A stretch of DNA of 64,000 nucleotides from Chloroflexota bacterium (GCA_016191425.1 JACPOR010000021.1:84312-148311); one strand, 5' to 3'; numbered from the stretch's first letter, positions 410 through 61,860 are shown. The notes: a model not told the origin generated them from the letters alone. A program made the numbers and translations.

Positions 410-472
410 GCATTGGCCGCATTGACCGCATCGGTCGCATTGACCGCATCGGCCGCATCGGCCGCTTCGATG
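410..472. repeat. 9-nt tandem repeat x7 (GCATYGRYC)
   Basis: Read directly: gcattggcc gcattgacc gcatcggtc gcattgacc gcatcggcc gcatcggcc gcttcgatg. It lies about 100 nt upstream of the phd/vapC pair. Confidence 0.85.
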
Positions 473-570
473 TCCGCCGGGGATGGCGTCGGCGGACATC
501 GGAACGTGCGCTCGATTTTGGCGGACCGCCTGCCACAAGAACCATCCAGTATTGTGCTACCATGTGCTAC

Positions 571-873
571 ATGAGTGAGTCGGAAGCGCGTCCAGAGCGG
601 GTGGGCGTGCGCGAATTGCGTCAGAACCTGTCCATCTACCTTGACCGCGTGAAGGCGGGCGAGACCCTCGACGTCACCGAGCATGGTCAGCCGGTGGCAC
701 GCCTCATCCCGAACCTACGGGCAAGGTTGTCGATCCTGGACCAGATGATCGCGGACGGCCGGGCGACCCCGGCCACATTCGACCATCGACTGATCCCGCC
801 GCCGCCGCGAATCGCGGGCGGCAGGCCGCTTTCGGAGATCATCCTCGAGATGCGCCACCAGGAGGACCGATGA
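571..873 (+). CDS. type II antitoxin, Phd/YefM family
   Basis: MSESEARPERVGVRELRQNLSIYLDRVKAGETLDVTEHGQPVARLIP is a typical Phd/YefM N-terminus. It overlaps the downstream PIN gene by ATGA. The 5' part of track ORF 202..873 is Arg/Pro-rich and covers the 9-nt repeat, so the ATG at 571 is preferred. Confidence 0.8.
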   Translation: MSESEARPERVGVRELRQNLSIYLDRVKAGETLDVTEHGQPVARLIPNLRARLSILDQMIADGRATPATFDHRLIPPPPRIAGGRPLSEIILEMRHQEDR

Positions 874-1313
874 CCGCCCTGGCCTATGTCGACGCGTCGG
901 CTCTGGCGAAGCTGATCCTTGAGGAGACTGGTTCGCTCGAGATGCGTCGCTGGTATGTCGAGAGTGAGCGGGTCGTGACGAGTCGCGTGGGAGTCGTCGA
1001 GACACGTCGAGCCGTTATCCGGCAGGCCCACGATCCCGCGCACCTGGAGGTGATCCTCAGGTCGGTCGAGACAGTCGAGTTCGACGCGGCCATGGCTCGC
1101 GCGGCCAGCGCCATCGAACCGGCGACGCTCAAGACCCTCGACGCGATCCACCTGGCCTCGGCGGCGGCCCTGGCGCCGGAACTCGACGCGTTTGTGACCT
1201 ACGACGACCGCCTTGCGGACGCTGCGCGAGCACTTGGCCTGCCGGTCGTCCGGCCCGCCTGGGCCGCGCTGAAGACGAGGCAGGTAGATGTGCGTAGTGA
1301 CCTGCCCGCCTGA
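870..1313 (+). CDS. vapC: type II toxin VapC (PIN-domain ribonuclease)
   Basis: The N-terminus AYVDASALAKLIL and the later motifs LDAIHLASA and VTYDDRL supply the PIN acidic residues. The gene overlaps the antitoxin stop by 4 nt. Confidence 0.8.
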   Translation: MTALAYVDASALAKLILEETGSLEMRRWYVESERVVTSRVGVVETRRAVIRQAHDPAHLEVILRSVETVEFDAAMARAASAIEPATLKTLDAIHLASAAALAPELDAFVTYDDRLADAARALGLPVVRPAWAALKTRQVDVRSDLPA

Positions 1314-1399
1314 GGAGGGAGGTATCGCTGGCCGAACCCGATCGCGCTGACGCCGACCGCATCGGCCAATTGCCAGCTCGCGAGAGCGAACGGCTCACC

Positions 1400-3349
1400 T
1401 CATCTCGGGCGTAGCGTCAGCGCAAGTCGCGTTGCGACCGGCGCCTCGAGCTTCTCGATGCGGATGGCGGTGGCCTTGAACTCGGCCGTGCCGGACTTCG
1501 GGTCCGTGGCGTCGATCGTGAGCAGGTTCGTCGCGACGTCGTCCTGGAAGTGGAGGGTCATGAAGGTCAGGCCGGGCCGGAGGCCCGCATCGACACGCAC
1601 GGGTACCTCGACCTCGCCGCGCCGCGAGACCACGCGAACCCGCTCGCCCTCGGCGAGCCCGAACGCCTCGAGATCCTCGGGGGAGACGTCGAGTGTCTCG
1701 CCCCGCCGGAGCGGTGACGTGAAGCTCCCCGTCTGGACGCCGGTGTTGTAGCTGTCGAGGCGGCGGCCGGTTGTCAGTCGGATCGGGAATTCGTCGTCCA
1801 GGCGATCCACCGGCGGGTCGTGATCCACCGGCACGAACGGCACGCGGCTGCCAGGCACCGGGTCCTCCCACAACCGCGAGTGGAGGAACAGCTCGCCGGG
1901 ATGGGTCTCGTCCCAGCACGGCCACTGAATTCCGCCGAGGGCCTCGAGGCGGGCATAGCTCATCCCGGCATGAACCGGCGATAGGGTCCGAAGCTCGTTC
2001 CAGATCCGCTCCGCCGACGGCTCACCCCAGTCGTGGCCCATCCGGCGGGCCAGCTCGAAGATGATCCACAGGTCGTCCCGCGCCTCGCCCGGCGGGTCGA
2101 GGGCCTTGCGGACCCGCTGGACCCGACGCTCCGAATTCGTGACGGTGCCCTCGGACTCCGCCCACGCGGCGGCGGCCGGCAGGACCACATCGGCCATCTC
2201 CGCGGTCGCGGTGAGGAACAGGTCCTGGACCACCATGAAGTCCAGCGAGGCGACGAGGCCTCTCGTTCGCGCCTGGTCGGCCTCGGACTGGACCGGATTC
2301 TCACCGATGACGTACGCGGCCTTGAGCTCGCCCCGCTCGATGGCGTCGAACATCTGGCTGAGATGCCAGCCCTTCTTCGAGGGAACCGGCACGCCCCAGG
2401 CGGCATCGAACTTCGCGCGGAGGGCATCCTGTTCGACGTGCTGGAACCCGGGTAGGCGATCCGGCAGGGCGCCCATGTCACCGCCGCCCTGGACGTTGTT
2501 CTGGCCCCGCAATGGGTTGAGGCCGCTGCCGTACCGCCCGACGTGCCCGGTCAGCGTCGCAAGGTTGATCAGCGCCAGGACGTTGTCCACCGCGTTGTGG
2601 TGTTCGGTGATCCCGAGGGTCCAGCAGATCATCGCCCGGTCGGCCTTGCCGTAGGCATGGGCGAGTTCGCGGATGGCGTCGGCTGGGACGCCGGTCTCGC
2701 GCTCGGCGTACTCGAGGGTGTACGACTCGACCTTCTCGCGGTAGGCCTCGAAGTCGAAGGTCGCCCGCTCGATGAACTCGGTGTTGGTCAGGCCGGCGTG
2801 GATGATCTCGCGCCCGACGGCATTCGCCAGCGCGATGTCGCTGCCGACATCGAGACCCAGCCACGTGTCCGACCATTCGGCCGAACTCGTCCGGCGCGGG
2901 TCCACGGTGAACAGACGGGCGCCGTTCCGGACCCCACGGAGCAGGTGATGGAAGAAGATCGGATGCGTCTCCCGGGCATTGCTGCCCCAGAGAATGATCA
3001 GATCGGTTTCCTCGACCTCACGATATGAGCTGGTTCCACCACCAGCGCCGAAGACGGTCGCCAGACCGGCGACAGACGGGGCGTGTCAGGTGCGGTTGCA
3101 GCTGTCGATGTTGTTGCTGCCCAGGACCACTCGCGAGAACTTCTGCGCCGCGTAGTTGACCTCGTTGGTCGCCTTGCTGCAGCTGAAGACGCCGAACGGA
3201 GCCGGTGCGTCGGCGCGGCGATGCGCCTCGGCGGCCCGAAACGCCGCCACGGTCCGATCGAGTGCCCGGTCCCAGGTCGCGGGACGGAGCTCGCCGCCCT
3301 TCGACTCCCGGACGAGGGGCTGGGTCAGTCTCAGGTAGTTCCTAGCCAC
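1400..3349 (-). CDS. fdhA: molybdopterin formate dehydrogenase alpha-type subunit with an in-frame UGA (selenocysteine); lacks the N-terminal Fe-S domain
   Basis: Track ORFs 1400..2905 and 3086..4060 share one frame and are separated only by TGA at 3088..3086. Read-through gives NNIDSCNRT-U-HAPSVAGLATVFGAGGGTSSY, matching the FdhF motif NNVDCCARVUHGPSVAGL. The C-terminal part is clearly MopB/FDH-like (RGQNNVQGGGDMGALP). The best start is GTG at 3349, preceded by AGGAGG with a 6-nt spacer. The first residues ARNYLRLTQPLVRESKGGELRPATWDRAL align to about residue 50 of E. coli FdhF. Confidence 0.8.
3050..3088 (-). promoter_or_regulatory. UGA recoding site plus SECIS-like hairpin
   Basis: mRNA sense reads UGA CAC GCC CCG UCU GUCGCC-GGUCU-GGCGAC. 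A perfect 6-bp stem (3073..3057) starts 12 nt after the UGA, with a GGUC-containing loop as in the E. coli fdhF SECIS (GCAGGUCUGC). Confidence 0.6.
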
Positions 3350-3541
3350 GGCGGGCCTCCTGCGGGTGCCGACGGGTCGAGTGTACGACGCCGCGGGTGG
3401 CGGGGGCCCGCCGCGCCACCGGGCTCGTCGAGGCGCCGCCGCGCCGGGGTCATCTGATCGGATTGGACCATCCCCTTGCCGCGACGGCAGCAGACACCTA
3501 TGGTTTCCCAGACCTCGCCGCATGCGAAGCAGGAGGAGTCG

Positions 3542-4105
3542 ATGGAAGCGGACGGCATCGCGTTCGTGGGACCTGGGTCGGAGTGGTTCTGGATCGCGCT
3601 CCAGTTCGCGGCCCTCGCGACGACTTTCTATGCCATCTATCGGCAACTGCAGCCGCAGCAGACCCAGATCCGCGACAACACGAAGGTCCTTCGCACCCAG
3701 GCCCATTATAACGCCCTGTTGCTCGCGCAGCGGCCATTCGAAATGCTGATCGAGAACGAAAGCCTGGCGAAGGTCGTCAACGTTGGGTATGCGACGCGCG
3801 AAGCGCTGAGCGATGACGACTGGTCGCGGTGCAGCTACTACACCTTCATGCAGTTCAACTCGTGGGAGTACCTGTACTACCAGAATCGTGATGGGTCGAT
3901 CCCCAAGGAGCTGTGGGTCGGCGCCGATGCGTACTTCAGGAGCCTGGTCGCGACAAGACCAGGCCTCGTCCGCTTCTGGTCGGAGTTCGAAGCGTCGTTT
4001 GACGAACCGTTTCGCTCCTACGTCACCGCGGAGTTCGCCGGAAGCCAAGACCACGGCCACGGCACTGGGGGAATCGGGCTTGCACCCCGCACCGCGTCAG
4101 GCTGA
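3542..4105 (+). CDS. hypothetical membrane-anchored protein
   Basis: ATG at 3542 is preceded by AGGAGGAG. The protein starts MEADGIAFVGPGSEWFWIALQFAALATTFYAIY (one TM helix), then a soluble domain rich in Y/W/F/N/Q. That composition is unlike the Arg/Pro/Gly shadow ORFs of this DNA. I could not recognise a family. The region is visibly less GC-rich. Confidence 0.55.
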   Translation: MEADGIAFVGPGSEWFWIALQFAALATTFYAIYRQLQPQQTQIRDNTKVLRTQAHYNALLLAQRPFEMLIENESLAKVVNVGYATREALSDDDWSRCSYYTFMQFNSWEYLYYQNRDGSIPKELWVGADAYFRSLVATRPGLVRFWSEFEASFDEPFRSYVTAEFAGSQDHGHGTGGIGLAPRTASG

Positions 4106-4133
4106 CGAGGCAGCCAAGGAATGGTCCCGTAGG

Positions 4134-4160
4134 TCGCTTGGCGTGCGGGAATGTCACTCG
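4134..4160 (+). repeat. 27-nt dispersed direct repeat, copy 1 (TCGCTTGGCGTGCGGGAATGTCACTCG)
   Basis: Identical core to the copies at 4410 and 4883. It was noticed because three track ORFs all translate to SLGVRECH. Confidence 0.85.
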
Positions 4161-4236
4161 GTCGCGGCAGCGCCCACGGTTCGATTGAGGTGGTCCGTGT
4201 GCCACTTTGGTGGCCGACCCGAGCATCGCTCCCGGG

Positions 4237-4353
4237 TCAGTCTCTACGTTCGCGCGCCTTCTCGTGCCGAATAGCGAGGCGGACCGCCCAATAGACGAGT
4301 AGGAATCCGATCAGGAGCGGGATCGCGTAGACGATTAGAACGGCAAGTTCCAT
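4237..4353 (-). CDS. small hypothetical membrane protein (38 aa)
   Basis: Own translation: MELAVLIVYAIPLLIGFLLVYWAVRLAIRHEKARERRD, one clean TM helix plus a basic tail. It is below the ORF-track size cutoff and has no clear SD sequence. Confidence 0.35.
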   Translation of the reverse strand: MELAVLIVYAIPLLIGFLLVYWAVRLAIRHEKARERRD

Positions 4354-4409
4354 GGGCCGAGCATAGACCCCCTTTGGGGGCTGCTGTTCGAAGTAATCAA
4401 GGCGGACTC

Positions 4410-4436
4410 TCGCTTGGCGTACGCGAATGTCACCCG
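4410..4436 (+). repeat. 27-nt dispersed direct repeat, copy 2 (TCGCTTGGCGTACGCGAATGTCACCCG)
   Basis: Same orientation as copy 1, 276 nt downstream of it. Confidence 0.85.
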
Positions 4437-4882
4437 AACGCTCAATCAGGTGCGGGTGGAATGAGATCAGCTATTCGAGCGAGGCGCTCCGAAATGACGG
4501 CGATCCTATCCACAATTGCGGATAGTCGACCGCCAGATGCGCGAAGCTTGGCCGTGATCCCAGAGAGCCAACGTATCGTGCCGGCATGGCTGCGAGTGAC
4601 ATCAGCATTCCGGACGGATTAGAACTCCGTAGACCTGATCCATTACCGGGGAGAACGGCATCAAGACGAACGCACTCAGACGCGGGTCGGGACCCACGGT
4701 TGCATTCGGCGTTCCCAAACGGCCCGGTGCAGGTGCCGGAATTCGTCGTTCTCGACCTGTGCGGCCTCTCCGTCGCTCGTCTCGTTGGCTCACACTGTGA
4801 TCCTAGCGGGGCACGCAACCGAGTCTTCCCTTTTCGCAATGGGATCGTACGGCATGTCGATCGGGGGTTCGGGCCCCGCGAG

Positions 4883-4909
4883 TCGCTTGGCGTCCGCGAA
4901 TGTCACTCG
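4883..4909 (+). repeat. 27-nt dispersed direct repeat, copy 3 (TCGCTTGGCGTCCGCGAATGTCACTCG)
   Basis: Same orientation, 473 nt after copy 2. It ends 52 nt upstream of the GNAT start codon. Confidence 0.85.
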
Positions 4910-4961
4910 AGGAAACGCAGTTCGTGGACACTTCCGTTGCTGGGCTGCAACAATCGCCTCG

Positions 4962-5624
4962 ATGACCCACCCGTGGCCGCTCTTTGATCTGCGGGTCCGG
5001 ACGGCTCGACTCGAGCTGCGTCTGCCTTCAGACGAGGACCTCCTCGCGCTACTCAACGTGGCGCATGCGGGCATCCATGACCCGGATACGATGCCGTTCG
5101 GGTTCGCGTGGACCGATCTTCAGGGCCTTGAGTTCGACCTTGGGTTCCTGAAGTTCTTCTGGGGGGCACGAGCCTCGTGGACGCTGTCAGCCTGGCAACT
5201 GCCGCTCGCGGTGATCCTCCGCGATCAACCGATCGGCATCCAAGAAGTACGGGCCAGTGGCTTCCTCGAGCGACGAACAGTCGAGACTGGGTCGTGGCTG
5301 GGGAGCACCTGGCAACGGCAGGGATTCGGAACCGAGATGCGCGCCGCGGTTCTCCACTTGTCGTTCGAGGGCCTGGGCGCGATGGCTGCCATCTCTGCGG
5401 CGCTGGAAGGCAACGAGGCGTCCCGCCGTGTCTCGGAGAAGCTCGGCTATCGTCCGAACGGGATCGAATTTGTTGCCCCCCGTGGCCACGCTGTCAAGCA
5501 GGACCGATACCTGCTCAGCCGAGAGGACTGGCGCCCAGATCAGTGGTCAGTTCAGATCGAGCATCTCGAAACCTGTCGCGGTATGTTCGGGCTCTCGCCC
5601 TCCACGAAAGCCGCCGCCGAGTAG
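4962..5624 (+). CDS. GNAT family N-acetyltransferase (RimJ/RimL-like)
   Basis: From MTHPWPLFDLRVRTARLELRLPSDEDL; acetyl-CoA motif WQRQGFGTEMRAAVL; C-terminal KLGYRPNG. The upstream part of track ORF 4785..5624 covers repeat copy 3 and is not protein-like. Confidence 0.8.
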   Translation: MTHPWPLFDLRVRTARLELRLPSDEDLLALLNVAHAGIHDPDTMPFGFAWTDLQGLEFDLGFLKFFWGARASWTLSAWQLPLAVILRDQPIGIQEVRASGFLERRTVETGSWLGSTWQRQGFGTEMRAAVLHLSFEGLGAMAAISAALEGNEASRRVSEKLGYRPNGIEFVAPRGHAVKQDRYLLSREDWRPDQWSVQIEHLETCRGMFGLSPSTKAAAE

Positions 5625-5665
5625 CACTCCTGGTATGGCACGCGTCGGCATCAGTCAGTGTGCTG

Positions 5666-6736
5666 TCACCAGATGCTGACGCCGGTGCCTTCCTCGACTT
5701 GGCCGACGCGCCAGTGGAGAACACCTGCCGCACTCAGTGCGGATTCCACCGCCGTCAGGGTGTCTGACCGAACGGCCGCCAGCAGCCCGCCGCTCGTTTG
5801 CGGATCGTGGGCAAGGGTCACGAGCTCCGCCGCCACACCGGGTCCGAGGTCGAGCGAGCCGGTCACGAACCGGCGGTTGTGGGCCGCGCCCCCGGTCTCG
5901 ATCCCGGTGCGCGCCAGCTCGAGCGACCCGGCGAGGGCCGGCAGGGCGGAGGCGTCGAAGACGAAGCGGGTCCCGGAGGCGCGGGCCATCTCCAGGCCGT
6001 GACCGAGCAAACCGAAGCCCGTGACGTCCGTGGCCGCCGAAACGCCGGCATCGATGAACACCTCCGCGGCCGCTCGATTGAGCGTCTGCATCTGCTCGAC
6101 TGCCGTCCGCAGGTCATCCTCGCTTGTCCGCCTCTGGCGATGGCCACTGACCAGGATCCCGGTGCCCAGCCGTTTGGTCAGAAGCAGCTGGTCGCCTGGC
6201 TTCGCGCCGCCCTTTCGCAGGATGCGATCCGGGTGGATCGCGCCGATCACGGCCAGCCCGTACTTCGGCTCCGGGTCGCGGATGGTATGGCCGCCCGCGA
6301 GCGTTCCGCCCGCCTCGCGCACCTTTGCCGATGCGCCGGCGAAGATCTCCGCGAGGACGTCGCGCGGCAGGTCCTCGGGGAAGGCCGCGATCGACAGCGC
6401 GAACAGCACCCGACCGCCCATGGCGAAGACATCGGACAGGGCGTTGGCCGCCGCGATCGAACCGAACGTGTATGGATCGTCCACGAGGGGCGGAAAGAAG
6501 TCCAGCGTCCCGATGATCGCGAGGTCGTCGCTGACGCGATAGACCGCAGCGTCGTCGGGCGGGTTGAGACCGGCGATCAGGTTCCCCGGCGCGTCGGCCT
6601 CCGCTTCCGCACCCAGCCCGGCGATCGCCTCGGCGAGCAGGTCGGCACCGAGCTTCGCGGCACAGCCGCCACACTCGGTCAGCTCGGTGAGGCGGATCCG
6701 GGGCGCACTGCTGAGGGTAGGGACGTCCATGGCCAT
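5666..6736 (-). CDS. selD: selenide, water dikinase SelD (Cys type)
   Basis: The N-terminus LTELTECGGCAAKLG is the SelD Cys/Sec-Gly-Cys-x-x-Lys motif. The remainder has the AIR-synthase-like fold pattern (DAAVY..., GGHTI). Confidence 0.9.
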   Translation of the reverse strand: MAMDVPTLSSAPRIRLTELTECGGCAAKLGADLLAEAIAGLGAEAEADAPGNLIAGLNPPDDAAVYRVSDDLAIIGTLDFFPPLVDDPYTFGSIAAANALSDVFAMGGRVLFALSIAAFPEDLPRDVLAEIFAGASAKVREAGGTLAGGHTIRDPEPKYGLAVIGAIHPDRILRKGGAKPGDQLLLTKRLGTGILVSGHRQRRTSEDDLRTAVEQMQTLNRAAAEVFIDAGVSAATDVTGFGLLGHGLEMARASGTRFVFDASALPALAGSLELARTGIETGGAAHNRRFVTGSLDLGPGVAAELVTLAHDPQTSGGLLAAVRSDTLTAVESALSAAGVLHWRVGQVEEGTGVSIW

Positions 6737-6780
6737 GGTGCGATGATAGGGAGTCCGTGCGGACGGGCTAGCATCAACGT

Positions 6781-6877
6781 GGGAGTGGGTTCGGGCCGGT
6801 GCCCGGCCCGGTCTTCAACACCGGTGGCGCGGCGCTCGGCGTCGCGCGGTGGGTTCGACTCCCATGCGCTCCCGCCA
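6781..6877 (+). tRNA. selC: tRNA-Sec (anticodon UCA at 6815..6817), encoded CCA
   Basis: Hand-folded sequence: GGGAGTGG acceptor; 6-bp D stem UCGGGC/GCCCGG with a 4-nt loop; anticodon loop CUUCAAC; long variable arm GCGCGGC..GUCGCGC; T arm UGGG-UUCGACU-CCCA; then GCGCUCCC-G-CCA. The long extra arm, 6-bp D stem and UCA anticodon are diagnostic. A possible -10 box TAGCAT lies at 6769..6774. Confidence 0.85.
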
Positions 6878-6910
6878 CGCTCAGGCTCACTTCAGTGTCG
6901 CGCTCCTGCC

Positions 6911-7600
6911 ATGGTCACGTTCTCGCTCGCGCTCAGGAGGAAGCCCGCATTGGCTGAACAGCCGGAGGTTTCGGAACCGGTGTCGTCCGGCGGCGCAGTC
7001 GAGCCGAACTGGGACGAGTACTACCGACGCACCCTCGGTCGTGAGCCGCGCCCGCTCTTCCGCCGCGGCATCGCGGCGGCGACAGCGGCCGGAGTCGTGC
7101 CGGGCCAGGCGGTCGAGATCGGTTTCGGTGATGTGACGGAGACACTGACCCTGCTCGACGCCGGCTGGCGCGTGCTTGCCGTGGATCCCACGCCCGCGGC
7201 TGCGGAGGGCCTTCGGTCGCGCGTTCGCCCGTCGCATGCCGAGCGACTCGAGATCCAGGCGGCCCCAGCGCAGGACTCGTCGCTCGTCCCGTTCGATCTC
7301 CTGTATGCCGGGTATGCCCTGTCGTTTCTCGATCGGGATGGATTTCGTCGATTCTGGCTGACCGTCCGGGATCGTCTCCGGCCCGGCGGGTTCGTGGTCG
7401 TGAACATCTTCGGGGTCCGCGACACCTGGGCCGGCGCCTCGGACATGACGTTCGTCGATCGCGAGGAGGTCGACCGACTCCTCGAGGGCCTCGAGGTCGT
7501 CGAGATTCTCGAAGAGGACGCGGACGGCGACTCCTTCTCCGGCCCCAAGCACTGGCATGTCTTCGACGTCATCGCACGTCGCCCGGGGGCGAATTCGTGA
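6911..7600 (+). CDS. class I SAM-dependent methyltransferase, TehB-like architecture
   Basis: MVTFSLALRRK...NWDEYYRRTL...GQAVEIGFGDVTETLTLLDAGWRVLAVDPTPAAAEGL...FDLLYAGYALSFL...LRPGGFVVVN. It starts 33 nt after tRNA-Sec, and its stop overlaps the selA GTG (GTGA). Only the last 229 codons of track ORF 5798..7600 are real; the remainder is antisense to selD. Confidence 0.75.
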   Translation: MVTFSLALRRKPALAEQPEVSEPVSSGGAVEPNWDEYYRRTLGREPRPLFRRGIAAATAAGVVPGQAVEIGFGDVTETLTLLDAGWRVLAVDPTPAAAEGLRSRVRPSHAERLEIQAAPAQDSSLVPFDLLYAGYALSFLDRDGFRRFWLTVRDRLRPGGFVVVNIFGVRDTWAGASDMTFVDREEVDRLLEGLEVVEILEEDADGDSFSGPKHWHVFDVIARRPGANS

Positions 7601-9015
7601 CCGTTCCACGAGCCGCGCGGCCGCACCCGCCGAGCGTTGAGCGCGTCCTCGCCGTCGCCCGGTCGCGGGCCGGTGGGCGGGACCCGGAAGCCGTCGCGGC
7701 AGTCGCTCGCACGGTGGTCGACAGCGAGCGAGAACGGCTGATCACGGGGGGAACACCCCGTGACATCGAAACGCTCGGGGCGCTCGTCGTCACCGCGCTC
7801 GAGGCCTTCGATGGGCCCGGCGTACGCGGCCGGGAAGCGCCGGCCCTGCCAGCAGGCTTGACGCAGGTCATCAATGCGACCGGGGTCGTGGTCCACACCA
7901 ACCTGGGACGGGCCGCGTGGCCCGTCGCGGCCATCGAAGCCGCCCGGCTCGCGGCGGGAGGTGCGACCCTCCTGGAGCTCGATCGAGGAACGGGGCGGCG
8001 TGGCGCGCGATTTCGCGTCGCCCAGGAGCACCTGACCGCGCTCACCGGCGCCGAGGACGCGCTCATCGTCACGAACAACGCGGCCGCGATCACCCTGGCC
8101 GTCGGGCTGGCCGGGCGCGGCGGGGGCGTGGCCGTGTCGCGCGGGGAGCTCCTGGAGATCGGCGGCGGCGTGCGGATCCCGGAGATCCTGCGTCGCGCCG
8201 GCGTGCGCCTCGTCGAGGTCGGGACCACGAATCGGACGCGGGTCGCGGACTTCGAGGCGACCCTCGCGGATCCGAAGGCGAGGATTCGCGCAATCCTTCG
8301 CGTTCATCCCTCCAACTTCGTCCAGACGGGTTTCGTGGAAGCGCCGGACCCCGCCGGACTCGCCGCGTTGGCCCACCACCACGGAGCGATTGTCATCGAT
8401 GACCTCGGCAGCGGCGCGCTCCTCCCCACGGAACGCGTCGGCCTGGCCCACGAACCCATGCCGAGGGAACGCCTGGACGCCGGCGCCGACCTGGTGACGT
8501 TCTCCGGCGACAAGCTCGTCGGCGGGCCCCAGGCGGGGCTGATCGTGGGTCGCGGCGATCTGGTCGCGAGGCTTCGGCGCGATCCGCTGGCCCGGGCGAT
8601 GCGCCCTGACAAGACGATCCTCGCGGCTGTCGCGGCAACCCTTGCCCTCTACCGCGCTGGCCGAGCCCTGACCGCCATCCCCGTCTGGCGGATGATGGCC
8701 ACCCCGCTTCCCGACCTCCGGCGGCGGGCGGAGGCCCTGGTCGCCGCACTTCCCGCCGGCTCGGCCGAGGTGACCGAGCTCGATGCGACCGTCGGCGGCG
8801 GTTCGGCACCAGGTCAGTCCCTGGCTTCGATCGGCCTGGCTCTCACCCCCCCGGGCGGCGGGTCGTCCGCCAGCCTCGTCGCCGCGCTCCGATCCGGCGA
8901 GCCCTGTGTCGTCGGCCGGATCGAGCGTGATCGCGTCGTCCTCGACCTCAGGACGGTCGCGCCCGAGGACGACGCCGCGCTCGCCGGAGCCGTCACCCGC
9001 GCGATCGCGCGCTGA
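7597..9015 (+). CDS. selA: L-seryl-tRNA(Sec) selenium transferase SelA
   Basis: VINATGVVVHTNLGRA, FSGDKLVGGPQAG (PLP lysine region) and a length of 472 aa. Confidence 0.9.
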   Translation: MTVPRAARPHPPSVERVLAVARSRAGGRDPEAVAAVARTVVDSERERLITGGTPRDIETLGALVVTALEAFDGPGVRGREAPALPAGLTQVINATGVVVHTNLGRAAWPVAAIEAARLAAGGATLLELDRGTGRRGARFRVAQEHLTALTGAEDALIVTNNAAAITLAVGLAGRGGGVAVSRGELLEIGGGVRIPEILRRAGVRLVEVGTTNRTRVADFEATLADPKARIRAILRVHPSNFVQTGFVEAPDPAGLAALAHHHGAIVIDDLGSGALLPTERVGLAHEPMPRERLDAGADLVTFSGDKLVGGPQAGLIVGRGDLVARLRRDPLARAMRPDKTILAAVAATLALYRAGRALTAIPVWRMMATPLPDLRRRAEALVAALPAGSAEVTELDATVGGGSAPGQSLASIGLALTPPGGGSSASLVAALRSGEPCVVGRIERDRVVLDLRTVAPEDDAALAGAVTRAIAR

Positions 9016-9022
9016 GCCGGCG

Positions 9023-15524: not shown

Positions 15525-15589
15525 ACGTCCCGGATTGGGACGGACTCACAGCGTGGCGGACGGCCCGGGGCCCGCGCGGGGGCGTCGGG

Positions 15590-15647
15590 GTCGGGTCAGC
15601 CCGGGCGGAGTCGTCGCACGTTCCGGTGTCGGGTCAGTCCGGGCGGA
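15590..15647. repeat. 38-nt direct duplication (gtcgggtcagYccgggcgga core, 2 copies)
   Basis: Copies lie at 15590..15609 and 15628..15647. The second contains the stop codon (15636..15634) and last codons of the zinc-ribbon gene. Confidence 0.7.
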
Positions 15648-41529: not shown

Positions 41530-41589
41530 TTCGAAGGCCCGCCGCCCGGCGCGAACGAGGCGCCCGCCGGGATACCGGTGGGCGTCGGT

Positions 41590-42910: not shown

Positions 42911-42976
42911 GCCGTGCCCCGGTCGCTGATCGCGTAAGGGTCGCAAGCGGACCTCCGACCCGTGCCGCCCGCTCGT

Positions 42977-43362: not shown

Positions 43363-45162
<1,800 letters not shown>

Positions 45163-46493: not shown

Positions 46494-46527
46494 TCGAGGC
46501 GGTCTCTTCGGGCGCTCGTGCCAGACC

Positions 46528-46623
46528 GCCGGACGAACGAACGCGCCAAGGGACGAAGGCGCTGCCGGACAAACACGCCGCGGGACGAAGGCGCTGCCGA
46601 ACGAACGCGCCACGGGCGGGCGG
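46528..46623. repeat. 32-36-nt tandem repeat x2.8
   Basis: gccggacgaacgaacgcgccaagggacgaaggcgct / gccggacaaacacgccgcgggacgaaggcgct / gccgaacgaacgcgccacgggcgggcgg. It lies between the convergent tal and menG stops. Confidence 0.8.
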
Positions 46624-48533: not shown

Positions 48534-48609
48534 GATCCAATGCGGGAGCGACGGTCCAATGCGGGAGCGCCGATCCAGTGTCGGAGCGACGGTCCAATGC
48601 GGGCGATCG
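48534..48609. repeat. 19-nt tandem repeat x4 (GRTCCAATGCGGGAGCGMC)
   Basis: Units at 48534..48552, 48553..48571, 48572..48590 and 48591..48609. The array begins 14 nt upstream of the oxidoreductase start codon (reverse strand). Confidence 0.9.
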
Positions 48610-53863: not shown

Positions 53864-54501
53864 CAACCACCGAGGACCACTTGCCCGTGACCAAGCCCGT
53901 GACCAGCCCTGCGACCAGCCCTGGGACCAAGGTCGTGACCATGCCCGCCGCGAAGGCTGCCGGCAGGTCAGCCCGACCATCCCTCATCGAGAGTCCGTCG
54001 GCGGGCGATGCCGTTGCGGAGGTGGCGGTCGCCGACGCCGACACCCCGGTGACGACGCTCGCCGAGGTTGCGAGTCCGACTGGTCCGGCGTCGACGGACA
54101 TGCCTCGCCGGGTCCGGGCCGTCGCCAAGGCCCGCAAGGCCGCCGCGGCTGCGGATCGCTCTGCCCTCGATGTCGCGCGCCGGATCGTCGAACTCGCCGA
54201 AGACAAGAAGGCCGCCGACATCGTCCTCCTCGATCTCGGGGGTCTCACGACACTGGCGGATTACTTCGTGATCTGTTCGGGAGGGTCGGAACGCCAGCTC
54301 GACGCGATCGCCGACGGGATCATCGGAGGTATGCGAGACGAGAAGATCAGGCCGTTCGGGCGGGAGGGAACTCCGGCATCGCACTGGGTCCTCGTCGACT
54401 TCGGAATCGTGATCGTCCACATCTTCACGCCCCCGGAGCGCGACTTCTACCAGCTCGAGAAGCACTGGTCGGAGGCCAGGACCATCCTTCGAGTCCAGTA
54501 A
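53860..54501 (+). CDS. rsfS: ribosome silencing factor RsfS with repeat-containing N-terminal extension
   Basis: The C-terminal 110 aa (KKAADIVLLDL...LADYFVICSG.SERQLDAIAD...WVLVDFG.VIVHIF) are canonical RsfS. TTGA overlap with the nadD stop. An alternative ATG lies at 53941. Confidence 0.8.
   Translation: MTTTEDHLPVTKPVTSPATSPGTKVVTMPAAKAAGRSARPSLIESPSAGDAVAEVAVADADTPVTTLAEVASPTGPASTDMPRRVRAVAKARKAAAAADRSALDVARRIVELAEDKKAADIVLLDLGGLTTLADYFVICSGGSERQLDAIADGIIGGMRDEKIRPFGREGTPASHWVLVDFGIVIVHIFTPPERDFYQLEKHWSEARTILRVQ
53884..53943. repeat. 12-nt tandem repeat x5 (CCCGTGACCAAG), in frame in the rsfS 5' extension
   Basis: cccgtgaccaag cccgtgaccagc cctgcgaccagc cctgggaccaag gtcgtgaccatg, which reads PVTK PVTS PATS PGTK VVTM. 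Confidence 0.85.
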
Positions 54502-54542: not shown

Positions 54543-54827
54543 ATGTTGGCGCGGAGTGCAGCCTTGCACCATCGCTGCATGCCACCCGTTCGCGAACGAT
54601 GTCCCGCCTGCCGGCGTCGCCTCATCACCACCCGGTTCGATACGGCGTTCCGCATGGCCGATCAATCCGAGCGACTGTGCTTCGGCATCCCCGGCGGACT
54701 GTGCGAAGACTGCCACCAGCTCTACATCGATCCGGAGCTGATCGAGCTGCTCGATCTCGCTGCGGGTCGCTGTACCTTCGCCATCGAGAGCGATCTCGTG
54801 ATCCAGGAGCAGGCCTGGTCGGCATGA
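54543..54827 (+). CDS. small hypothetical Cys-rich protein (CxxC ... CxxC)
   Basis: ...RERCPACRRRLITTRFDTAFRMADQSERLCFGIPGGLCEDCHQLYIDPELIELLDL... Protein-like composition at the tail of track ORF 53643..54827. Start at 54543 or 54579. Confidence 0.45.
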   Translation: MLARSAALHHRCMPPVRERCPACRRRLITTRFDTAFRMADQSERLCFGIPGGLCEDCHQLYIDPELIELLDLAAGRCTFAIESDLVIQEQAWSA

Positions 54828-54895
54828 GCCACCGGTCGGCATGAGCCGCCGGTCGGCATGAGCCTCCGGTCGGCGTGAGCCACCGGTCGCCGCGG
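54817..54895. repeat. 17-nt tandem repeat x4.6 (GGTCGGCATGAGCCNCC), first unit contains the upstream stop codon
   Basis: Units at 54817..54833, 54834..54850, 54851..54867 and 54868..54884, plus a partial. The TGA at 54825..54827 is inside unit 1. Confidence 0.9.
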
Positions 54896-56003: not shown

Positions 56004-58862
56004 TCACCGGCGGCGGCCGCAGCGGGCCCGGGATCGTGGCATAACGACTCGCCGACCGGCCGGGTGACCCCGTACGAAACGGCCGAATCGTTCGTCCGGG
56101 AGCAGCGTGGCGGTGTCTGTCGCGACGGCCGGTCGGGGGATGCGTGGCGAGCGAGGATCACGAGCAGCATCGTAGCCGAGGCCGCTCGCGACGTCGGAGG
56201 AGGCTGCTCGGGCCGTCGATGGCTTCGGACGATCAGGCGGGATCGGCGGGGGCCCGTTCAGGGCTGCCGAGGTCCTAGCTTGGGAGAGCAAGGCCTCCGA
56301 GGCTTGCGAGGTCTGCGCGGCGTGCGAGGTCTGCGCGGCGTGCGAGGTCTGCGCGGCGTGCGACCCTTGCGACATCGCCGCGGCCTGTGCAGCCGCCGCT
56401 GCGCCGGTCCCGCCCGCCGTCGGGGCCGCAACGGTTCGCCCGCCCGTGGTACGGACGCGGAGCGGGCCAACGCCAAGATCCACGGTGACGGTGCCATCGG
56501 TATCCGTTCGAAGCACGCGTGCGCCGGTCGCCTCGAGGCGGGCGACGGTGTCCGGAGCCGGGTGGCCGTATGGATTGCCCTTGCCGGCGGAGATCGCGGC
56601 GACTGCCGGCTGGACGGCCGCGAGAAACGTTTCGGTGGACGAGGTCCTCGAGCCGTGATGCGCGACCTTGAGGAAGTCGACTCGAGGCAGGCCCCGCGCC
56701 AGGAGTCCCGGATCGATCTCCTCCTCGATGTCGCCGGCAAGCAGTACGCGATGGCCGCCGACGTCTCCGAGCAGGACGATCGAGACATTGTTGATGCCGG
56801 TACCCGTGTCCGGGGGTTGCTCCGGTACGCTGCCCGGATCGGGCCACAGCACCCGAAAGCGGAACTCGTCGACCGACAACCGATCCCCGGTCGCCAGGGT
56901 TCCCCTGGCAATTCCGAGTGCGATCAATTCGGCATTCAGGGCGGCATAGCCGGGTCCGGGACCGAACATGCCCGGTTCAAACACCCGGGTCACCGAATAG
57001 CGGTCCAGGATCGCTGCGAGTCCCGCCGCGTGGTCTTCATGCGGATGCGACAGGATCACGACATCGACACGGCGGTCCCACGGAGGCAGCTGCTCATCGA
57101 GGGCGACGAGGAGTCGAGCCGGATCCGGTCCGCCGTCGATGAGCAGCCGCCCGCCGCGCCCTCCCTCGACGAGGATCGCGTCGCCCTGACCGACGTCCAG
57201 CACGGTGATCCGCGGGACCCCATCGGGGCGCTGGACGACGACGACCGCCAACGAGACGATCGAGGCCGCCAGTCCGCCGGCGAGCACGCGTCCGACGCGC
57301 GTGTGCCACCAGGACGGCGCGCGACCAGCCGCCCTCGAGGTGACGGCGTCGCCGGGTCGGCGCTGACCTCTGCCCGCGCGTCCGATCCCGGACGGGCGCC
57401 GCGTTGCCACCGTGGCCAGGAGGATCGCGAGGCCGGCAGTTGCCGCAACCACAACGTTCCACGGGTCATCGAGCTGGAGGCTCGCGAACGGGAGCGACGC
57501 GCCGCCACGGACGACTCCAACCATGAGCGAGAGGAGCAGCCAGGCCGGAAGACCTCCGATCGTGGCCACCGCGGGCGCCAGCCCCGCCATCGCGAGGAGA
57601 CCACCTCCGAAGGCTGCGACCCCGGCGCCCATCGCCGGCGCCACGAGTGGAACGACCGCGAGGTTCACGACGGGTGAAACGAGGGACAGGCGCCCGAACG
57701 CGAGCACGACAATAGGCACGGTGGCCAGCTGGGCCGCGAGCGAGACGCCGAGGCTCTCCGCGAGCCAGGCCCTCGGCCGGCCCGGGGCCCTGCCGGCCAG
57801 GCGATCCGTGAACGGTGTGCCCCACACGATCAGGCCCACGGTCGCGAGCGCCGACAGCTGGAATCCCACATCCTCGACGAGTCGTGGGTCGGCGACGAGC
57901 AGGGCCACGACGGCCCAGCCGATGGCGGCTGCGGCTCGGCTCGGGCGCCCGAGCTCGCGGGCGAGCATGACCACGCCGGCCATGCCCGCCGCCCGGATGA
58001 CCGATGCCGAGGGCCCGACGAACGCGACATAGCCCACGATCGCCAGGGCGGTGAGAAGGACGCGACGGCGCCGGGCAAGGCGTCCGGCGAGGGCAGCCAG
58101 TGTCGTCGCCACGATCGCGATATTCCAGCCTGAGATCGCGACGACGTGGGTGGCTCCGACGGCCGTGAACGCGGCCGAGAGGCCCCGGTCCACGCGGTCG
58201 CGCAAGCCGATGAGGATGCCGCTTGCCAGGCCGGCCTCCGGTTCGGGAATGGCGAGCCGCAGGGCACGATCGGCGCCGCGCCGGAGACCCTCGAGTGCCC
58301 GGGCTGGATCACTCGGCTGTGGTTCGAGGTCCAGGTGTGTCACGCGGATCGTGCCCTGGACGCCGATCCGCTCCAGGTAGTCACCGTACGGATCGTCGGC
58401 CGGCGGCGCCCGGAGTGTTCCGCTCAGGCTCACCCGATCGCCCGGGATCACCACCGGAAAGACCGGCAACGTGCCGGCCACCCGTGTCCCGGCGGGAGCC
58501 TCGAACGCGACGACGGCAGGTTGCTGGCCGGCACGCGGTGCCCCGATCGAGACGACCGTCGCGATCCAGGGCCCGTCACCCGTCGGGAGTGGGCCTGGCC
58601 TGGGTGCCTCCACGGGATCCGTTACGAGTACACGCCCGGCGACGAACAGGATCCCGAGCGTCAGGAGTGCGATCTTCGAAGCTGCAGCCCGGAGGGTATG
58701 GGCCCGTTCGAGGCGTTCCGACCAGGCACGCCGGGCCGCCCATGTGATGAACATGCCAGCGGTACCCATCAGCATGATCGCGGCGAGCGCCCGGTGCGTC
58801 GCGTGCGCGGCGGCGATCGCGGCGATGACCGCGCCGATCGCGATCCAGCCGCTGCGTGGCAC
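56004..58862 (-). CDS. comEC: DNA internalization competence protein ComEC/Rec2 with MBL domain and low-complexity tail
   Basis: Polytopic competence domain, then the MBL motif ILSHPHEDH. GTG start shares one base with the comEA TAG. The C-terminal tail contains the SHAAQT repeats. Confidence 0.85.
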   Translation of the reverse strand: MPRSGWIAIGAVIAAIAAAHATHRALAAIMLMGTAGMFITWAARRAWSERLERAHTLRAAASKIALLTLGILFVAGRVLVTDPVEAPRPGPLPTGDGPWIATVVSIGAPRAGQQPAVVAFEAPAGTRVAGTLPVFPVVIPGDRVSLSGTLRAPPADDPYGDYLERIGVQGTIRVTHLDLEPQPSDPARALEGLRRGADRALRLAIPEPEAGLASGILIGLRDRVDRGLSAAFTAVGATHVVAISGWNIAIVATTLAALAGRLARRRRVLLTALAIVGYVAFVGPSASVIRAAGMAGVVMLARELGRPSRAAAAIGWAVVALLVADPRLVEDVGFQLSALATVGLIVWGTPFTDRLAGRAPGRPRAWLAESLGVSLAAQLATVPIVVLAFGRLSLVSPVVNLAVVPLVAPAMGAGVAAFGGGLLAMAGLAPAVATIGGLPAWLLLSLMVGVVRGGASLPFASLQLDDPWNVVVAATAGLAILLATVATRRPSGIGRAGRGQRRPGDAVTSRAAGRAPSWWHTRVGRVLAGGLAASIVSLAVVVVQRPDGVPRITVLDVGQGDAILVEGGRGGRLLIDGGPDPARLLVALDEQLPPWDRRVDVVILSHPHEDHAAGLAAILDRYSVTRVFEPGMFGPGPGYAALNAELIALGIARGTLATGDRLSVDEFRFRVLWPDPGSVPEQPPDTGTGINNVSIVLLGDVGGHRVLLAGDIEEEIDPGLLARGLPRVDFLKVAHHGSRTSSTETFLAAVQPAVAAISAGKGNPYGHPAPDTVARLEATGARVLRTDTDGTVTVDLGVGPLRVRTTGGRTVAAPTAGGTGAAAAAQAAAMSQGSHAAQTSHAAQTSHAAQTSQASEALLSQARTSAALNGPPPIPPDRPKPSTARAASSDVASGLGYDAARDPRSPRIPRPAVATDTATLLPDERFGRFVRGHPAGRRVVMPRSRARCGRRR
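56303..56374. repeat. 18-nt tandem repeat x4, in frame in the comEC 3' tail
   Basis: cttgcgaggtctgcgcgg / cgtgcgaggtctgcgcgg x2 / a degenerate 4th unit. It encodes (SHAAQT)x3-4 on the reverse strand. Confidence 0.9.
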
Positions 58863-59584: not shown

Positions 59585-59687
59585 GTGCGGGGCGGGCAGA
59601 CTGACGTGCGGGCGGGCAGACGGACGTGCGGGGCGGGCCGACTGACGTGCGGGGCGGGCCGACTGACGTGCGGGCTGGCAGACTGAC
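59585..59687. repeat. 20-21-nt tandem repeat x5 (GTGCGGGGCGGGCMGACTGAC)
   Basis: Units at 59585..59605, 59606..59625, 59626..59646, 59647..59667 and 59668..59687. It lies in the divergent spacer between comEA and the amidohydrolase gene. Confidence 0.9.
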
Positions 59688-59983
59688 GTCCCGTCCGCCG
59701 GGGCACATCGTCGGACGGGACGTTCGATGGATCCTATGCGGGTCGGATTAGCTGCGACTTATCGGCCAGGGGCAAGGGTGCTGGTGACGCGCTGTTGTGG
59801 CGGACCCGGGTACTCGACGACCTGGGGTCCAGCCCTGACACGCCCACCGAACACGGCACGACCTGGTTGGCTAGTCTGGCCGTATCTACCAGTGACGGGC
59901 AACCCAGCCGGCGCGAGCGCCTGGCAGAATCGTCCGACGCCTCGGCGAGGCGCCCGTTTCCGGCCACGACGAAGGAGGCTTCA

Positions 59984-61185
59984 ATGGGACGCGTGGTGTT
60001 GCGCGGCGGGTCGGTCTTCGACGGTACGGGAGCCGACCCTGCGCCGGCCGATATCGTCATCGAGGATGGCCTGATCGTTGACGTCGGGTCGGCGCTGGAC
60101 GGTGACGAGGCCATCGACGCGACCGGCAAGACGATTCTTCCCGGCCTGTTCGACTGCCACGTCCACGTGACCCTCGACACGATCGATGTCTGGCGGCTGG
60201 TGAACCGGCCGTTCAGCTACAACTTCTACGTGGCGGCCCGGAACCTGCAGGCGACCCTCGCGACCGGCATCACCTCGGTCCGCGATGCCGGCGGTGCCGA
60301 TCTCGGGATCAAGCAGGCCGTCGAGGACGGCCTCATTGCCGGGCCGCGCATGCAGATCAGCCTGACGATGCTGAGCCAGACCGGTGGCCACGGGGACGAT
60401 TGGCTCCCATCCGGCGTGATGGTGCCGATGATCGCGGGTCATCCCGGCATCCCATCGCAGATCGTCGACGGCCCGGACGAGATGCGGCGCAAGGTCCGCG
60501 AGCTCCGCCGCATGGGCGCCGACGTGGTGAAGGTCGCCACGTCGGGTGGTGTTCTGTCTGCCCGGGACGACCCGGCCCATGCGCCTTCCGGCCCGCCGAG
60601 CTCGATGTGCTCGTGGAGGAGGCGACGGCGGCCGGCATGTTCGTGATGGCCCACGCGCAGGCCGCGGACGGGATCAAGAACGCGGTTCGTGCCGGGATCC
60701 GATCCATCGACCATGGGGTCTTCCTCGACGACGAGGGGATCGAGCTCATGCTCGCGAAGGGCACGTGGCTGGTGCCGACCCTTGTTGCGCCCCACGGCGT
60801 CCTGGAGGCCGCTGCTGCGGGCGCCGCCATCGCGGAACCGATCCTCGAGAAGGCCCGGGCCGTGATGACACGCCACACGAACGCGATCCGCCGGGCCATC
60901 GAAGCCGGCGTGCGGATCGCGATGGGCACGGACTCCGGCGTGACCCCACACGGACGGAACCTCCGCGAGTTCACGCTGATGGCCGAACTGGGCATGGCCC
61001 CTTCGGCGGTGCTCGAGTCGGCAACGCGCAGCGCGGCGCAGCTCATGGGCGTCGACTCCGAACGCGGCGCGATCGAGCCGGGCAAGCTCGCCGATCTGGT
61101 CCTCGTGGACGGCGACCCGTACGGGTTCGACACGTTGGCCGACCGGATCAGCTCGGTCTACCTCGGCGGGCGGCAGGTCATCTGA
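59984..61185 (+). pseudogene. metal-dependent amidohydrolase with a single -1 nt frameshift near 60588
   Basis: ATG at 59984 after GAAGGAGG. The N-half carries PGLFDCHVHV (HxH metal site) ...VKVATSGGVLSARDDPAHA. The family sequence then continues only in the next frame (FRPAELDVLVEEATAAGMFVMAHA...GTDSG...). The junction gcg-cc-ttc looks one base short. Confidence 0.6.
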
Positions 61186-61208
61186 GGGCCGGAACTCGCC
61201 GGCGACTT

Positions 61209-61311
61209 GCATGGCGGGCGTGACATGTGCGGCAGGTATTGCACGCGCGGCAGGTGCGGCCCGCGGCGCCGCGCCCTCGAGCATGGCAGGCGTGCCCGTT
61301 CGCGGGGCAGG
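61209..61311. repeat. imperfect direct repeats (GCATGGCRGGCGTG...GCGGCAGG)
   Basis: Copies at 61209..61236 and 61281..61311, with an extra gcgcggcagg at 61245..61254. They lie between convergent stops. Confidence 0.5.
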
Positions 61312-61319
61312 AGCGACCG

Positions 61320-61751
61320 CTAGCGCGGGAGGCGCTCCCACGCCACCCAGTGGCTTCCGTCCCACCAGCGGTGCCAGGTCAGGCCGTCACGTCCCAGGGC
61401 AAAGACGTCGAGGCGATTCGCCCCCCATGAGGATGCAGCGGGCGTTTCTCGCGGATCGAGTTCGCCGCCAAGGGATTCCCAGGGATGCCACGAGGCGCCG
61501 TCCCAGTAGCGATTCCAGAGCTCACCGTCCGCCATGACGGCGAAGACTTCCATGCGATCGACGGCCCAGGCCGTGACCGTGGGTGCCGACGCCAGCGAAC
61601 CGCCGAGTGATTCCGGATCCAGCCATCCGCCGTCCGCGAAGGCTCGATGGATCAGGGCGCCATCTGAACCCCTCCAGAAGAGGTCGATGCGGCCGGGTCC
61701 CCAGGAAACCGCCGCTGTCCCGCTGCCGAGCTGGTCGTTCATGGCCGCCAC
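61320..61751 (-). CDS. DUF346 / PLL-like beta-propeller repeat protein (three blades)
   Basis: Three units of about 45 aa: ..SWGPGRIDLFWRGSDGALIHRAFADGGW..ESLGG / ..AWAVDRMEVFAVMADGELWNRYWDGASWHPWESLGG / ..SWGANRLDVFALGRDGLTWHRWWDGSHWVAWE. Confidence 0.65.
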   Translation of the reverse strand: MAAMNDQLGSGTAAVSWGPGRIDLFWRGSDGALIHRAFADGGWLDPESLGGSLASAPTVTAWAVDRMEVFAVMADGELWNRYWDGASWHPWESLGGELDPRETPAASSWGANRLDVFALGRDGLTWHRWWDGSHWVAWERLPR

Positions 61752-61758
61752 GGTACCC

Positions 61759-61860
61759 GCAAGGCCGCCGACGCGCCAGCAAGGCCGCCGCGACGCGCCA
61801 GCAAGGCCGCCGCGACGCGCCAGCGGGCAGCCCGACGCGCCAGCGGGCAGCCCGACACCG
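61759..61860. repeat. 20-22-nt tandem repeat x5 (GCAAGGCCGCCGCGACGCGCCA / GCGGGCAGCCCGACGCGCCA)
   Basis: Units at 61759..61778, 61779..61800, 61801..61822, 61823..61842 and 61843..61860. The array starts 8 nt upstream of the DUF346 GTG start. Confidence 0.9.

Follow-up and report, generated by a model that had tools for sequence, protein, structure and literature searches.

Dense, locus-specific tandem-repeat arrays in a 64-kb genome segment of a Chloroflexota bacterium

Minisatellites, or variable-number tandem repeats (VNTRs), have been described in several bacteria, among them Burkholderia pseudomallei, Xanthomonas and, for loci other than the mycobacterial interspersed repetitive units (MIRUs), Mycobacterium tuberculosis. 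They consist of head-to-tail units whose sequence is specific to each locus, they lie between genes or in frame within them, their copy number differs between strains, and they are attributed to slippage. MIRUs themselves were reportedly described by Supply et al. in 1997 as one dispersed family, with a shared consensus and about 40 loci. Contingency loci, known from Haemophilus, Neisseria and Campylobacter, are a third kind of tandem repeat in which copy number is changeable by slippage. In the survey of Subirana and Messeguer (2019; PMC6749651), median satellite density is 0-3 per Mb, the bacterial maximum is 23 per Mb (B. pseudomallei chromosome II) and the prokaryotic maximum is 89 per Mb (Methanosarcina vacuolata). 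Here we describe short tandem-repeat arrays in a 64,000-nucleotide (nt) stretch of a Chloroflexota bacterium (GCA_016191425.1, JACPOR010000021.1:84312-148311), hereafter the window, for which an initial annotation made from the sequence alone had listed 21 such loci.

We read these arrays as ordinary prokaryotic minisatellites of the VNTR type, made in place, that arise or are retained at an unusually high rate in this lineage, and we put the probability of this reading at about 0.8.

Arrays in the window and their placement

We ran Tandem Repeats Finder (TRF) with default scoring over the window and merged its 82 rows into distinct arrays at a score of at least 50. There were 23 such arrays, whereas 100 dinucleotide-preserving shuffles averaged 1.54 and never exceeded 7, so that the window, at 69% GC, holds far more arrays than its base composition would give by chance. 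Strong arrays, defined by a period of at least 9 nt and a score of at least 60, numbered 18 (shuffles: mean 0.38, maximum 3). Units ranged from 9 to 45 nt, with a median of about 20 nt, and most measured 15-32 nt. Both TRF and a unit-by-unit layout showed copies running head to tail without spacers, in the size range of about 10-100 nt that is usual for minisatellites. Since the copies are contiguous, they are not a CRISPR array, in which identical repeats alternate with unique spacers that are alike in length; here the initial annotation was correct. It was also accurate about most positions: TRF recovered 18 of its 21 loci, with coordinates and periods that agree to within a few bases. Direct repeats in two real copies, 92-95% identical, underlie its low-copy loci 15590 and 24011 (24 nt at 92%, spacing 38, 15586-15647; 22 nt at 95%, spacing 39, 24010-24070). 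Its locus 61209 is present but weak, an 18-nt unit in 2.1 copies at 61229-61265 with a TRF score of 46.

Genes were called by codon usage and the calls were then refined by homology to a sister genome, which is represented by the segments L161 and L179, both from one 2.98-Mb contig. Non-coding DNA makes up 14.6% of the window and contains 14 of the 18 strong arrays (binomial probability about 3e-9). Of spacer DNA, 13% is array, compared with 0.3% in shuffled sequence; of coding DNA, 1.5% is. When the window's spacers were sorted by orientation, we observed no specific tie of arrays to 5' or 3' ends.

Three divergent spacers carry arrays: a 9-nt unit in 6.9 copies at 408-469, with higher-order periods of 18 and 27 nt; a 19-nt unit in 3.6 copies upstream of rho (48536-48603); and a 21-nt unit in 5.1 copies at 59585-59689 (90% matches). 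Two convergent spacers do so as well. Between tal and ubiE, a 32-nt unit (2 x 16) in 2.6 copies (46534-46616) lies beside a hairpin with an 8-bp stem (46498-46530), and at the end of an 82-amino-acid (aa) gene (54579-54827) a 17-nt unit is present in 4.3 copies on the plus strand (54817-54889, 92% matches). Tandem spacers hold a 15-nt unit in 3.3 copies (19758-19806, 97% matches) after an sbcC-like gene (17534-19702); the two-copy repeat at 24010, a 24-nt unit in 2.8-3 copies (24077-24148, 97% matches) upstream of the minus-strand citrate synthase gene, and two perfect copies of an 18-nt unit (24263-24298, 2.0 copies, 100% matches); two arrays in the 543-nt spacer between the 6PGD and PGI genes (20 nt x 2.6 at 30603-30654; 31 nt x 2.3 at 30696-30766, 95% matches); a 19-22-nt unit in 5.4 copies at the pyrG 3' end (45055-45161, plus strand, 94%, higher-order period 55 nt); and a 21/22-nt unit in 4.7 copies between two minus-strand genes (61743-61856, higher-order period 42 nt). 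The EamA-pyrG spacer has a 20-nt unit in 4.1 copies (42831-42911, 90% matches). Finally, a degenerate 15-nt unit in about 10 copies (20728-20877, 68-70% matches, higher-order period 45 nt) lies between the stop of a Rieske gene (20894) and the start of an AAA_33 gene (about 20723), both on the minus strand.

All four strong arrays inside open reading frames (ORFs) have a period divisible by 3 (24, 21, 12 and 18 nt); intergenic periods include 17, 19, 20, 22, 31 and 32 nt. In PGI, a 24-nt unit in 3.9 copies (31456-31548, minus strand) encodes (RARDQGGM)x3-4 within a 44-aa linker insertion. A 12-nt unit in 5.4 copies (53883-53947, plus strand) lies in the low-complexity N-terminal tail of RsfS, and an 18-nt unit in 3.5 copies (56291-56363, minus strand) encodes (SHAAQT)x3 in the non-conserved C-terminal tail of ComEC. 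Protein alignment placed these three in extra sequence that the sister genome does not have: the PGI (31456) and ComEC (56303) arrays are in-frame insertions relative to it, and the RsfS tail with array 53884 is longer in the window. The fourth, a 21-nt unit in 4.7-8.6 copies (41589-41768, plus strand, higher-order period 63 nt), follows a conserved hairpin and belongs either to the N-terminus or to the 5' leader of the EamA gene, depending on the choice of start codon.

How close is the association with gene boundaries? The initial annotation had placed the arrays at such boundaries, and most are indeed intergenic, but four of those it listed (31456, 41590, 53884 and 56303) lie inside ORFs. 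Some of its wider statements were too strong. Arrays were said to occupy almost every spacer longer than about 80 nt; we found them in about 13 of 29 with default settings, and in 20 of 29 with relaxed settings that bring in much noise. Most arrays were said to abut or include a start or stop codon, whereas two demonstrably include a stop (45055 and 54817), 20728 fills a gene junction, 61743 abuts a possible start codon and the rest lie inside spacers. Nor do unusually many units carry TGA when either strand is counted (7 of 18, 4.5 expected, not significant). We conclude that the boundary association is better explained by a selection filter than by targeting of gene ends: boundaries are enriched because duplications survive just where they are harmless.

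In-place origin, turnover and distribution among relatives

At three loci (54817, pyrG and 20728), comparison of sequences points directly to an origin in situ from local DNA, as is usual for minisatellites. In the sister segment L161, the 82-aa gene terminates in ...CCTGGTCGGCGTGAACCCGC, in single copy; at the matching position the window has GGTCGGCATGAGCCACC x 4.3. This unit matches the single-copy gene end GGTCGGCGTGAACCCGC of L161, and its first copy still supplies the final codons and TGA stop of the 82-aa gene. The end of the same gene in the relative L002 bears an independent array with a different 18-nt unit, in which the stop codon is again included. At pyrG, array 45055 opens with a unit that includes the last four codons and the TGA stop; 57 nt downstream, copy 4 repeats this gene end without mismatch over 22 nt (four codons, TGA and 7 further nt). 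Independent arrays occur at the pyrG 3' end in L086 and L081. The Rieske and AAA_33 genes share 4 nt of overlap in the sister genome, and in the window array 20728 takes up the space between them. Many arrays have higher-order periods (55, 63, 45, 42 and 18/27 nt), and growth therefore appears to have proceeded in multi-unit blocks.

Gene order is well conserved between the window and its relatives, yet orthologous spacers hold arrays of unrelated units or none. Such replacement was seen after tal, after the 82-aa gene, upstream of pyrG and at the EamA 5' end. Identity within arrays is 68-100%, and mean protein identity between window and sister is 81.5%; the arrays must therefore be much younger than the species split. 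A change in copy number was caught in a related lineage that is not the window's species: across 5.3 kb, L173 matches L174/L176/L177 at 97.6% identity, and the sole indel between them is one 21-nt unit of an in-frame array encoding (APQPGAP)n. For the window's own species there is a single comparison, with contig L178, in which array copy number is unchanged.

We compared densities by counting TRF arrays with at least 4 copies and a unit of 10-200 nt, and again with at least 80% matches required. The window has 141 such arrays per Mb (78 per Mb at the stricter setting), and the array-rich relatives L002, L086 and L083 have 137 (85). The array-poor relatives L161/L179, L163, L165, L167 and L082 have 8 (0), and unrelated bacteria, sampled as 2.4 Mb around pyrG, have 13 (5). 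Short tandem-repeat arrays are about ten times commoner here than in typical bacteria. The contrast is sharpest between sisters, within syntenic DNA: there are 15 arrays between 19.6 and 56.6 kb of the window and 2 in the 36.7 kb of the sister (binomial p about 0.001). Together with the single-copy state of orthologous gene ends, these counts uphold the earlier suggestion of a lineage-specific process that duplicates local or gene-end segments.

On a neighbour-joining tree of PyrG, array-rich lineages are scattered and paired with array-poor sisters (the window with L161, L002 with L165). The trait has therefore changed repeatedly and recently. We rejected the idea that it is common to the whole clade, as four relatives with 86-93% PyrG identity are at background density. 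The clearest case of arrays inflating intergenic DNA is the divergent tkt/pfkB spacer of L002, which measures about 720 nt, compared with 47 nt in the window, and consists of nearly nothing but two arrays (564-877, 27 nt x 9.9, 97% matches; 1032-1135, 24 nt x 4.3, 95%).

Proposed mechanism and alternative explanations

Slippage and microhomology-mediated duplication, filtered by selection, are the best reading of the process behind the arrays. An array would be seeded when a local stretch of 9-45 nt is duplicated head to tail, a step of which the loci above are direct examples. To judge from the pattern of copies, it would then lengthen, often two to three units at a time, through unequal exchange or renewed replication slippage. 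Selection would confine persistence to harmless sites, and the arrays are in fact found at such sites: in spacers of every orientation, beyond a stop codon kept by the first unit, and in frame in disordered linkers and tails. Rapid divergence and replacement would leave unrelated arrays, or none, in orthologous spacers, as is observed. The cause of the roughly 10-fold difference in rate or retention between sisters is likeliest to be an inherited alteration of replication or repair, such as one in single-stranded-DNA exonucleases or helicases, whose role in removing slipped intermediates is established in Escherichia coli genetics. Weaker selection for compact intergenic DNA may add to the excess. 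Individual arrays most likely have no dedicated function.

Several observations weigh against this account. Genome-wide density is extrapolated from 64 kb here and, for each relative, roughly 20 kb; a single array occurs in the window's first 19 kb. The sbcCD-like genes are present in both window and sister. On the plus strand, TGA occurs in 7 of 18 units (2.2 expected), and on the minus strand in none (2.5 expected); a real stop-codon origin accounts for just two of the seven. Strong hairpins abut 3 of 16 window arrays, including both hairpins with 12-bp stems, and this suggests, weakly, that stable hairpins may act as nuclei for slippage or bias the choice of site. The corresponding figure among relatives is 2 of 20 arrays, and with these proportions we rejected hairpin-nucleated slippage as a general rule.

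The two 12-bp-stem hairpins, at 468-501 and 59686-59723, are the strongest in the window. Both lie in divergent promoter regions, each starts where an array ends (408-469 and 59585-59689, respectively), and they have the 11-mer GTCCGCCGGGG in common.

The patchy presence of arrays among close relatives speaks for a mutational process that can switch on and off and against a system of regulation. One may tentatively go further and propose a heritable "tandem-amplification mutator" state, which a particular replication or repair factor, gained or lost, would set. Such a state would switch between sister species, raise minisatellite density above any so far seen in Bacteria (to about 80-140 per Mb), measurably enlarge intergenic DNA and reshape protein termini. 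We regard this extended proposal as possible, at somewhat less than even odds.

Could the input of duplications be normal, and the arrays, longer spacers and pseudogenes simply build up under weak selection or drift, through a small effective population or relaxed compactness? This is the alternative that survives best, and it is unlikely. In syntenic regions, the non-coding share is about 11% in the window and 3-7% in the sister, and 64 kb of the window contain three candidate decayed genes: a split amidohydrolase, a truncated MFS transporter and a LUD-domain remnant. Given the additional intergenic DNA and the three possibly decayed genes, weaker purging may contribute, although split genes in a metagenome-assembled genome (MAG) may also be assembly errors. 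A relative-rate test gave the window lineage 196 unique amino-acid changes, compared with 150 (chi-square 6.1). This excess is modest, 25-30%, and a second rich/poor pair has none (L002, 157; L165, 145). We therefore consider severe drift or a general mutator unlikely, and we rejected a general point-mutation mutator or strong relaxed selection as the source of the arrays. Moreover, the arrays are young, their units being 80-100% identical, and a 10-fold surplus of young arrays requires high input, beyond slow removal.

Somewhat less probable again is a functional regulatory or contingency system, in which copy number would tune promoters, untranslated regions (UTRs), terminators or terminal peptides. 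The initial annotation had raised the possibility of a contingency-locus-like system tuning UTRs. The arrays at 408, at 59585 and, upstream of rho, at 48536 do occupy 5' regions, protein termini or linkers are altered in EamA, RsfS, ComEC, PGI and the PyrG tails, one in-frame array is polymorphic in copy number between strains, and the enrichment of TGA on the plus strand could be taken in the same sense. However, convergent 3'/3' spacers, which are free of promoters, carry arrays equally often, and placement is independent of orientation. The units are unrelated to one another and not prone to structure: trimers of the consensus units are no more stably folded than trimers of shuffled units (mean z +0.45), and we rejected structured-RNA or hairpin units on that ground. 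Canonical intrinsic terminators, in which a T-run follows a GC-rich hairpin, or promoters were not in excess at arrays, and of terminator-like sites between 40 and 57 kb there were 2, with 5.6 expected, neither at an array. Units of 9-45 nt contrast with the 1-9 nt typical of phase-variable repeats in promoters or 5' coding ends; one array here has a 9-nt unit, and the coding arrays stay in frame. Orthologous spacers in relatives have non-homologous arrays or none, and close lineages do without arrays. The sister has the same housekeeping genes without them, and the flanking genes are of that housekeeping kind (pyrG, tal, rho, rsfS, holA) rather than surface or restriction genes. The contingency proposal is thus unsupported, and we return to the reading of the arrays as minisatellites made in place.

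That the arrays are assembler loops or mis-joins is a natural concern, as the window derives from a MAG, but we consider artefact excluded. Units differ at specific positions and form higher-order structure in the unit-by-unit layout, which assembler loops do not produce, and reading frames are intact around and through the arrays. The independent Logan contig L178 (SRR12113392) matches 40814-41934 of the window at 99.9% and reproduces the EamA array (41629; 41589-41768) with equal copy number. This same-strain contig turned up solely through the 51-aa protein encoded ahead of EamA; exact-protein look-ups with PyrG, Tal, the 82-aa protein, YCII and G6PD returned no second assembly of the strain. 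Similar densities recur in L002, L086 and L083, from different projects and assemblers: array-rich loci come from long-contig MAGs and metagenome assemblies of different projects, and array-poor loci from the same long-read datasets. Artefact is rejected because of these unit differences, the L178 contig, the recurrence across projects and the intact frames.

Least credible of all is a dispersed mobile or interspersed family of the MIRU, repetitive extragenic palindrome (REP) or MITE type: intergenic position and occasional stop codons recall MIRUs, and two array-adjoining hairpins have an 11-mer in common, but the longest k-mers shared in an all-against-all comparison of 33 units from four genomes follow the shuffled distribution, the 11-mer is not enriched in the window (13 matches, 11.4 expected), the units come from local ancestral sequence, and Rfam finds no family in the window except tRNA-Sec. 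Neither a common motif nor the palindrome conserved at many loci that marks REPs, bacterial interspersed mosaic elements and MITEs was found among the units, whose folding gave the same mean z of +0.45. With sharing between units at chance level, the initial annotation was right that each locus has its own unit and that this is not one dispersed repeat family.

Gene content of the window and relation to described repeats

PyrG places the window in the Chloroflexota, among Candidatus Limnocylindria / Limnocylindrales MAGs (87-93% identity); the host is an uncultured soil or water bacterium, a Limnocylindria-like member of the phylum. For the window's G6PD, NCBI protein MBI2763310.1, encoded on a 155-kb contig of a "Chloroflexi bacterium" MAG, is a 100% match. 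Pfam matches identify pentose-phosphate genes, pyrG, tal, rho, obg, nadD, rsfS, holA and comEC as the housekeeping content, along with a selenocysteine cluster and sbcCD-like genes. The selenocysteine cluster is complete (1400-10987): an FdhA-like molybdopterin oxidoreductase gene (1400-3349, minus strand) with an in-frame TGA at 3086-3088 (motif CNRT-U-HAPSVAGL), selD (5666-6736, minus strand), tRNA-Sec (6781-6877, an Rfam match), selA (7597-9015) and selB (9023-10987). A Phd/YefM antitoxin and PIN toxin pair precedes it (601-873 and 870-1313; 601-1313 overall). A lone PIN gene (33360-33788) stands between rpiB and tkt, and the sister genome does not have it. At 24904-26607, 6-phosphogluconolactonase and an alpha/beta hydrolase are joined as a single 567-aa ORF; the sister counterpart is two overlapping genes (L179, 12871-13686 and 13683-14531).

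The candidate decayed genes were also seen at the level of individual frames. The amidohydrolase is broken into overlapping frames at 59993-60646 and 60607-61185, which match Pfam positions 1-127 and 140-342, and the split (59993-61185) is a frameshift or an assembly indel. Tandem duplication was rejected as its source, as the junction contains no repeat. The MFS transporter gene (21777-22733) is missing the first 84 residues of its sister ortholog and is probably a deletion product or a pseudogene; in the sister a 65-nt divergent spacer separates it from the Rieske gene, whose start (21769) lies directly against it in the window. Of a LUD-domain gene, the final 47 residues remain at 45499-45642, inside an unusually long pyrG-tal spacer of 755 nt, and in L173 the intact gene lies 3' of pyrG.

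Two features adjoin arrays. Past residue 530 or so, PyrG is hypervariable within the clade, in sequence as well as in length, with proteins of 552-800 aa (tails compared: window 44960-45069, L001-L088, P0003 and P0012), and in-frame repeats occur in some tails, such as (AVSPPT)x2 in that of L081. Just 3' of a conserved 51-aa ORF of unassigned function (41374-41529) lies the hairpin GCCCGCCGG-loop-CCGGCGGGC (about 41563-41590). It is kept, with compensating stem differences, in every relative examined (L161, L163, L165 and L173-L177), and is a possible terminator or attenuator upstream of EamA.

The arrays display the stepwise remodelling of gene ends, spacers and disordered protein tails by local amplification. 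Should a similar density hold across the whole genome, no other bacterial genome described so far would be as rich in minisatellites, and the record would fall to an abundant uncultured class of soil and freshwater. Rich and poor sisters exist as long contigs, so that a comparison of gene content could reveal what normally suppresses short tandem duplication. In practice, the arrays could serve as VNTR markers for strain tracking in the lineage, and they signal that many spacers will cause breaks or collapses when these organisms are assembled from short reads.

Our literature search found no report of tandem repeats in Limnocylindria. Systems described elsewhere serve for comparison. Contingency loci resemble the arrays in being tandem repeats that slippage can lengthen or shorten, but they have 1-9-nt units at promoters or 5' coding ends of surface or restriction-modification genes and act by switching frame or spacing, traits that do not apply to most arrays here. 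MIRUs are closer at first sight: they too are tandem intergenic units in a high-GC genome, some with flanking stop or start codons, and their copy number varies. Their units, however, measure 46-101 bp, whereas those of the window measure 9-45 nt and are unrelated at every locus; among the 33 units compared, sharing stayed at shuffle level instead of revealing a consensus. MIRUs lie within operons, where ORFs in the unit overlap the adjacent stop and start codons, whereas 2-3 arrays here include a stop and divergent and convergent spacers carry arrays too. The likeness to MIRUs drawn in the initial annotation is thus superficial. Microhomology-mediated tandem duplications (PMC8639346) are frequent, reversible and local, and offer a plausible seeding step; as described there, they are rapidly reversible within populations, whereas the arrays are fixed, multi-copy and partly diverged.

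The short-unit satellites of Methanosarcina (PMC6749651) are similar in more respects. They form dense short arrays with units below 30 nt and many unique sequences, they are read as local replication errors, and their density ranges from 7 to 89 per Mb between related species. They differ in belonging to Archaea with about 40% GC, compared with 69% here, and many are derived from microsatellites or fall into families, whereas in the window origin in situ from unique gene-end sequence appears directly. With the bacterial minisatellites of B. pseudomallei, Xanthomonas and M. tuberculosis, the arrays share the head-to-tail, locus-specific unit, the position between genes or in frame within them and the proposed origin by slippage; a difference in copy number between strains was seen for one array, in a related lineage. 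The Burkholderia minisatellites derive from 6-8-nt microsatellites, and the units here, mostly 15-32 nt, do not. The remaining difference is density, which at 78-141 per Mb (TRF, at least 4 copies) is much higher here and possibly a record for Bacteria, in an order-of-magnitude comparison, since the detector of PMC6749651 is a different and stricter one and a TRF background of 5-13 per Mb suggests that ours is a few-fold more permissive. We conclude that these minisatellites are ordinary in kind and that their density is exceptional and phylogenetically patchy.

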